Source: Armatimonadota bacterium (GTDB lineage: Bacteria; Armatimonadota; Fimbriimonadia; Fimbriimonadales; Fimbriimonadaceae). Taken from it: a stretch of DNA of 64,000 nucleotides. The notes under the pieces were generated by a model. That model was not told the origin of the DNA, searched no databases, and was given only the letters and a program-made list of their open reading frames with translations. Shown piece by piece: positions 37,683 to 38,320 of this stretch. The stretch spans positions 186,001 through 250,000 of the forward strand of contig JANNQV010000028.1 in the NCBI GenBank assembly GCA_031400935.1, given 5' to 3'. Made by a program: the position numbers and the translations under genes. Each line of letters begins with the position of its first letter. Positions within the stretch are counted from its first letter, which is position 1.

Positions 37683-37865
37683 TCAGCTGCTTTTCTTCGA
37701 AATTCCAACGACAAACAATGCCAGAGCCGCTCCGGCTAAAACCGGCACCGCCGGTTGTTTCTGATTGATTCAGCCAGTTTTGCAAGCGATCATTAGCAGG
37801 TGATAACCAAATCCGACTATTGCGCCTATTATTGCTGTGAATATGTATTTAGATATTGGAGTCAT
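37683..37865 (-). CDS. Small two-TM membrane protein with in-frame UGA (candidate selenoprotein, DUF6132-like)
   Basis: MTPISKYIFTAIIGAIVGFGYHLLMIACKTG-UGA-INQKQPAVPVLAGAALALFVVGISKKSS; SECIS-like hairpin at 37740-37756. Confidence 0.65.
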
Positions 37866-37885: not shown

Positions 37886-38320
37886 CTACTTCTTCCTTAA
37901 CAATGTGATAGAGGGTCCATCGGGAGCTGTAAGCGCAAATTCATCATTTCCGTTCCATTTCAATATCGCCAGTTGAGGTTTACCTTTTTGCGATTCGAAC
38001 TGCGATTTTATCATTGGCTCCATCTCTTTCGCAACCCCTGTTACAGACACCTCTTTGGGAGTCATCGTAATTTTGGTTTCCTCCGTTGATTTCCAGTCAC
38101 CCTTGATTGTGATTTCAGAAAAAAATGATCCGGCGGCCTGCGGAATGGGCACTTTCATGACCTGAACGAACGTGCCATCTGCATTCATCACTTGGTTTAG
38201 CTTGATTTTTTGCCCCATTTGACTGACTTCGCCTTCCCACGTGCCTACAAGTTTGTTGCCGACCTTACAACCGGAAAGCATAAGCAAGACAACCAAGAAG
38301 TGAACTGGGCACAGTTTCAT
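37886..38320 (-). CDS. Lipoprotein, lipocalin-like beta barrel
   Basis: Lipobox LSG-C; LVGTW and NADGTF motifs. Confidence 0.8.
   Translation of the reverse strand: MKLCPVHFLVVLLMLSGCKVGNKLVGTWEGEVSQMGQKIKLNQVMNADGTFVQVMKVPIPQAAGSFFSEITIKGDWKSTEETKITMTPKEVSVTGVAKEMEPMIKSQFESQKGKPQLAILKWNGNDEFALTAPDGPSITLLRKK

Follow-up and report, generated by a model that had tools for sequence, protein, structure and literature searches.

A gene hidden by an in-frame UGA

On the minus strand of the window (the whole stretch of 64,000 nucleotides of Armatimonadota DNA analyzed here), an open reading frame extends from an ATG at 37865 to its own TGA stop at 37685-37683 and encodes 60 amino acids, with a cysteine at residue 28 and an in-frame TGA at codon 32 (37772-37770). 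The ATG begins 20 nt past the stop, at 37886, of an upstream putative lipoprotein gene that is common to a same-genus genome and is found at no other homolog locus. This 60-codon gene was hidden by its in-frame UGA. A sequence-only reading of the DNA had proposed the frame, the position of the UGA, the four-residue spacing between cysteine and UGA, and the coordinates of a stem and loop just downstream, all of which were verified on the sequence. The features of the locus are as follows.

37886..38320, minus strand: putative lipoprotein gene, located upstream; its LSGC lipobox was recognized in the sequence
37683..37865, minus strand: coding sequence of 60 amino acids with UGA very likely read as selenocysteine and a TGA stop; divergent DUF6132-related protein (homologs, profile match)
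37785..37859, minus strand: predicted helix 1, residues 3-27 (AlphaFold model, conservation, hydropathy)
37782..37784, minus strand: Cys28, the partner cysteine, at -4 here and at -6, -5, +3 or +4 in relatives
37770..37772, minus strand: codon 32, an in-frame TGA proposed to encode selenocysteine (every aligned homolog has either TGA or Cys here)
37740..37756, minus strand: putative SECIS hairpin with a 7-bp stem, within the Q-P-A-V-P-V codons; GGU triloop at 37749-37747 (+21 to +23)
37701..37751, minus strand: predicted helix 2, residues 39-55, with the basic tail KKSS after it (AlphaFold model, hydropathy)

A weak hint of expression comes from a freshwater-sediment metatranscriptome, in which a 261-nt contig spans 37639-37899 with three differences, covers just this gene and derives from a close relative. 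No other contig in 20 kb matches from end to end, and this one represents one study available as strandless contigs from a run that was itself found using this stretch. A promoter scan at the locus gave results at chance level, and an Rfam scan over the locus gave no match.

Homologs with TGA or cysteine at codon 32

A protein search of 61 related genomes returned 24 matches including the window's own, of which 19 have TGA and five have TGC or TGT at the column of codon 32, while a profile search of 301 genomes of the phylum returned 35 matches. The match in genome G211 (L061/L182) was dropped as spurious. With six duplicates (L032, L034, L035, L039, L040 and L042) and one spurious match removed, the close-homolog set comprises 40 loci, with TGA at the column in 30 and a cysteine codon in ten. 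As had been expected of a true selenoprotein family, every close homolog has either TGA or Cys at this column and aligns past it.

The selA gene is present in all 30 genomes with the TGA form and was found in none of the ten with the Cys form, which are 97-100% complete. One genus holds both states, with two TGA-containing, selA-positive genomes and six Cys-containing, selA-negative genomes. Because the homolog genomes are kin, no p-value is given for this link. A short tree implies six changes between TGA and Cys, with only one independent pair on well-supported branches, leaving few independent events behind the selA link; the protein tree, built from 51 columns, is too weak to polarize the changes.

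Twenty-two further genomes of the same family yielded one more TGA form, which also has the hairpin. The other 21 gave no homolog, and since ten of these are selA-positive, the gene is not needed for selenocysteine use. Two TGA-form genomes (G307 and G350) contain selB, with no selA over the cut-off. In a class of spirochaetes (122 genomes), the gene occurs in 23 genomes and carries TGA in seven, all with selA. Thirteen of the 16 Cys forms from this class are also in selA-positive genomes, and the strict selA rule is therefore limited to the host's lineage rather than being family-wide.

Existing annotation is affected by the UGA as well. Gene callers cut the family at this codon, Pfam misses it in the host's lineage, and 19 of 61 database representatives stop just before the Sec/Cys column.

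A conserved hairpin downstream of the UGA

A stem of seven base pairs, AACCGGC-GGT-GCCGGTT (37756-37740), starts 13 nt after the TGA and places its loop at +21 to +23. Taken alone, this hairpin is unremarkable, with a fold z of -1.76 and equally good folds in 17 of 200 shuffles. Under loose rules, a stem of at least 7 bp with a GGN triloop follows 105 of the 108,820 genomic TGAs. The frame is, moreover, short and hydrophobic, and the window protein gives no matches in a single-sequence protein search. Features of this kind could belong to a pseudogene or a chance frame, or to a gene whose product is a 31-residue peptide ending at the UGA. These possibilities are very improbable given that the same TGA, with conserved coding sequence beyond it, recurs in 30 genomes from many genera, that other relatives have Cys at the column, and that the hairpin is frozen at synonymous positions.

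Thus, the hairpin by itself is within chance, but its conservation exceeds chance. In 29 of the 30 TGA forms, a stem of 5-9 bp carries a 3-nt loop at +21; in the remaining one, the loop lies at +18. No stem as long as 5 bp occurs at this site in any of the ten Cys homologs, although one retains a 4-bp remnant. TGA forms have therefore retained the hairpin, as the sequence-only reading required of a functional element, and Cys forms have lost it.

Codon choice beneath the stem is equally constrained. Among the 29 TGA forms aligned without an indel (L051, which has a one-codon insertion, is excluded), Pro+6 is CCG in 29 of 29, Ala+7 is GCG in 26 of 26 and Pro+9 is CCG in 28 of 29. In the ten Cys forms, each of these prolines is encoded by three different codons. 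Glycine codons upstream or elsewhere in TGA forms use all four endings, and the second hydrophobic helix beyond the hairpin has free synonymous sites. In a gap-free alignment of 19 loci, 90% of stem cells are paired, compared to 22-52% in slid controls. Covariation is thin, with one inner compensatory change from C-G to U-A and four of the seven pairs never varying.

The bacterial SECIS consensus calls for a loop of 3-9 nt, a stem of 4-16 bp, G among the first two loop positions, a spacing of 16-37 nt and an energy of at most -7.5 (PMC13188914). The element at this locus falls within these ranges, having a 3-nt loop that begins with G, a 7-bp stem, 20-nt spacing and a predicted energy of -10.2 kcal/mol. 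A lower helix that includes the UGA itself had also been proposed; it does appear in the predicted fold at this locus, but it is not conserved, and the UGA is paired with the 3' side at p>0.5 in only three of the 30 TGA forms.

Predicted folds place the same G-G/U-U/C triloop after the UGA of the host selD gene and of three other UGA frames in the host genome. Seven distant TGA forms from Armatimonadota have no such triloop hairpin, and the spirochaete TGA forms that were folded (L066 and five others, excluding L068) have stems of 4-5 bp or longer with a GUA loop. The hairpin would give the phylum a short, sharply defined SECIS that already points to further unlisted selenoproteins.

Selenocysteine machinery in the host genome

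The genes whose presence had been called for, selA, selB, selC and selD, are accounted for in the host genome (95.6% complete), which encodes selA (452 bits), selB (361 bits), selD (354 bits) and tRNA-Sec (66 bits), all above curated cut-offs. The selD gene itself carries one in-frame TGA, downstream of which an 8-bp stem is capped by a GUU triloop. The anticodon of the host tRNA-Sec is UCA, and that of the tRNA-Trp in the window is CCA.

The occurrence of in-frame TGA in many relatives might also arise if UGA were read as Trp, Gly or Cys under an alternative genetic code. The chance of this is negligible, as the gene's own terminator is TGA, tRNA-Trp has a CCA anticodon and a tRNA-Sec with a UCA anticodon exists, and the column holds Cys in homologs and never Trp or Gly. 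Even taken together, a pseudogene and another code account for a very small share of the probability. We conclude that the gene is real and that its product is very probably a selenoprotein, and the combined sequence evidence makes SelB-dependent insertion of selenocysteine at codon 32 highly likely.

Other in-frame TGA frames with downstream hairpins were noted in the host genome. L188 (G000:C28:4354-4971, plus strand, outside the window) has a signal-peptide-like start and the motif C-P-L-TGA, after which a long stem ends in a GUU triloop, and is a candidate for an uncatalogued CxxU selenoprotein with no Pfam or NCBIfam family. Three similar-looking exported proteins, L184 (C18:104731-105912), L185 (C18:77859-78998) and L183 (C17:122438-123679), contain GHPxGCT-U-NNG (GGC-U-QNG in the third) at the TGA, with hairpins after it and no family match. 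Another frame, L186 (C17:138778-139854, minus strand), reads SGHT-U-ANMDH with a hairpin and belongs to no family, whereas L189 (C31:2031-3023, minus strand) combines DCG-U and a GUU/GGU-type triloop with a discoidin-like glycan-binding domain. An exported thioredoxin-like protein, L187 (C25:65210-66196, plus strand), has the motif W-U-G-A-C and a GGU triloop hairpin, and reads as a UxxC selenoprotein of known type.

A divergent relative of DUF6132

A resemblance to DUF6132 had been proposed in the sequence-only reading. The window protein itself has no match to Pfam DUF6132 (PF19628) at the gathering cut-off of 23.2 bits, but the link is recovered by profile comparison and through bridging members. 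DUF6132 matches are weak in seven of 24 close homologs (best E 0.0025), and a search with a profile of the close homologs brings up proteins annotated as DUF6132, at E about 4e-4. Comparison of the two profiles with hhalign gave 97.9% and E 4.9e-13 over 56 columns, full length and in the same register, with a template of only six rows, three of them selected TGA forms. As a lead only, the Atlas clusters nearest to a Cys homolog, at 0.89, are DUF6132.

Five TGA forms (L056, L060, L064, L067 and L068) score above the Pfam cut-off and serve as bridges; L064, from Armatimonadota, is nearly identical to its same-phylum homolog L056. When 185,579 species genomes were scanned for the pattern, nine matches emerged, of which four are real (one from Armatimonadota, two from Spirochaetota and one unclassified), with selB in all four genomes and selA in three. 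Canonical DUF6132 proteins with TGA in place of the same Cys occur in other Armatimonadota and in Spirochaetota. The remaining pattern-scan matches, L062, L063, L065, L069 and L070, are chance frames and were dropped.

On these comparisons, we assign the window protein to a DUF6132-related subfamily and not to the Pfam family itself. The Cys forms of Pfam DUF6132 are likewise 52-62 amino acids long, with two Gly-rich hydrophobic segments and a common register (GxGY at -14 to -11, Cys or Sec at 0, and Pro at +6). The window family differs in having Sec for the second Cys and a partner Cys at -4 or +3, as opposed to mostly -5, and its gene neighbors are different. The window loop reads INQKQPAVP rather than PLTSNP, and C-x3-U-I stands in place of the C-x4-C-P motif, both of whose cysteines are found at each of the 80 canonical loci.

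Some DUF6132 proteins are named 'YtxH domain-containing protein' by NCBI, and NCBIfam 20.0 gave nothing over cut-off for 24 close members, seven distant TGA forms and two canonical proteins. A tblastn search of plasmids with a canonical member found no matches. Fusions of DUF6132 to thioredoxin were seen in none of 80 metagenome loci, 23 spirochaete loci or two Atlas look-ups made with Cys homologs.

DUF6132 (PF19628) is absent from the 2026 catalogue of 119 selenoprotein families (Table 1, PMC13188914), and the present family would therefore be an addition to the bacterial selenoproteome. DUF6132 was likewise not found in the searched passages of the deep-Sep paper (PMC12013277), the BSepDB paper (PMC13326102) and the preprint by Haft and Gwadz. 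A full-text literature search for DUF6132 returned one unrelated paper. Known CxxU and UxxC bacterial selenoproteins (PMC13188914) share with this family a UGA at a Cys column, a nearby Cys, Cys-containing homologs, and a SECIS just downstream inside the coding region. Those proteins are mostly soluble and of thioredoxin fold, whereas the window protein is predicted to be a 60-residue helical hairpin, and its family has no fixed motif spacing.

A movable partner cysteine between two predicted helices

An AlphaFold model (mean pLDDT 76, pTM 0.47) comprises two helices, spanning residues 3-27 and 39-55, and a connecting loop that is modeled with less certainty. In helix 1, G14, G18 and Y21 are conserved, and H22 and M25 are typical of the subfamily. 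Conservation of the coding sequence continues past the UGA, with Pro+6 and Pro+9 in 29 of 29 TGA forms. A PDB sequence search gave one match at E 0.8 and no solved relative, and Foldseek with the predicted model found none under E 5.

The Sec/Cys column is invariant among 53 aligned members, 52 of which have exactly one partner Cys. None has two, and the TGA form L025 has none. The partner lies at +3 in 25 members, -5 in 11, -4 in ten, +4 in five and -6 in one. The CxxxU motif originally described is accurate for the window protein, where Cys is at -4, but as a family signature it is only one of five arrangements, with UxxC being the commonest (25 of 53). The natural Sec/Cys pairs within one genus, along with these five spacings, provide a ready series for testing selenium in a membrane.

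Lysine plus arginine residues average 2.6 at the ends and 1.6 in the loop, weakly favoring an arrangement with the ends inside and the loop outside. The thioredoxin encoded beside L057 has a hydrophobic N-terminus, which would fit an outward loop. A periplasmic loop is likely, as these sequence features weakly suggest.

Gene neighborhoods and possible functions

Canonical Cys loci were surveyed as the best 80 of 370 metagenome matches to one query, a biased sample of kin. A YgaP-like membrane protein is encoded by the next gene at 49 of these best 80 loci (70 with room), and a thioredoxin just upstream at 24 (65 with room). Genes for an RND membrane-fusion protein (26 loci), ArsR (13) and rhodanese (11) are also nearby, as are cytochrome bd genes. 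All of these are sulfur- and thiol-stress genes. Redox-type neighbors of Sec forms include a thioredoxin at L057, a CsoR-type repressor and OsmC at L060, and OsmC at L030, which is the one exception among the host locus and its close relatives, all otherwise lacking redox neighbors.

Selenocysteine usually marks a reactive residue, and a DUF with no assigned function thereby gains its first catalytic clue. In the explanation we consider best, SelB likely reads the hairpin and inserts selenocysteine at UGA codon 32, and the product would be a two-helix membrane protein with Sec32 and Cys28 in its loop. These residues would form a reversible selenium-sulfur redox pair that, at the membrane surface, accepts either an oxidant or a sulfane-sulfur atom and is reset by a thioredoxin-fold partner. 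As a whole, this account of a membrane-surface Sec32/Cys28 redox pair is reasonably probable. Chances are roughly even that, in a redox or sulfane-sulfur relay, Sec carries out the attack and the movable Cys resolves the bond. A more elaborate version is doubtful; in it, a fixed catalytic Sec works with a resolving Cys that has repeatedly switched sides, the relay serves exported selenoproteins, and the lineage keeps Sec whenever it can be made. Several of the exported selenoproteins that such a relay would serve are uncatalogued candidates in the host genome.

Sec32, Cys28, His22 and Met25 could instead form a membrane-surface site for binding or handing off a soft metal such as Cu(I), Ag or Hg. 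Close homologs have His at -10 in 27 of 39 cases and Met at -7 in 34 of 39; genes for a CsoR/RcnR-type repressor, ArsR and RND efflux lie near canonical members; and a MerT-like selenoprotein has already been catalogued. We regard a metal site as unlikely, however, as canonical DUF6132 proteins lack these His and Met residues and the ten-position range of the partner Cys would suit proximity more than fixed geometry. No MerT-type family (PF02411) is present among the matches listed, nor is PF04143; at E up to 1, the listing covers 25 of 26 families matched by 24 members. NF033936 and NF040733 are likewise missing from the matches listed for these members.

These four are catalogued membrane selenoproteins, namely PF02411 (putative mercuric transport), YeeE/YedE (PF04143), SO_0444 (NF033936) and SaoP (NF040733), which resemble the present family in having Sec in a membrane protein with possible metal or sulfur handling. 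We take them to be larger transporters than the window protein.

A role connected with heme was considered because a HemN/HemW-type radical SAM gene directly follows 24 of the 40 close loci, and at no fewer than nine of 23 loci the stop of the gene, judged by eye, runs into a plausible start of hemW. The protein could then be an accessory that binds or receives heme, or readthrough of the UGA could feed the overlapping hemW start so that selenium tunes HemW; UxxCH occurs in some members, and a Cys-Pro pair in canonical ones. This arrangement is missing from the host genome, its genus and the distant Armatimonadota loci (0 of 7), hemW is absent from the recurring neighbor clusters of canonical loci, and Cys forms keep the linkage. 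Moreover, argS is also a frequent neighbor (13 of 47 loci), suggesting plain ancestral gene order. A heme or hemW function is accordingly rated improbable, and the selenium-sulfur redox pair remains our preferred reading.

The YgaP-like domain (PF11127) of the membrane sulfurtransferase YgaP is also a two-helix membrane unit with Cys-Pro. It is not homologous to the window protein by the scans run. Its gene is the commonest neighbor of canonical DUF6132 and is found in the host genome elsewhere, fused to a rhodanese-like domain (by eye).

Two other gene arrangements were observed. In the spirochaete locus L066 (1044-2833), arsR-hgcA-hgcB is divergent from the Sec-DUF6132 gene, and the encoded HgcA and HgcB (mercury methylation) score above NCBIfam cut-offs; the arrangement is not in the related spirochaete L068. 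In the host genome, the rhodanese-like protein fused to the YgaP-like membrane domain (L192, G000:C14:33444-36608) is unlinked to the gene described here and is followed by a metallo-beta-lactamase-fold/rhodanese protein, by eye a putative persulfide-handling pair.
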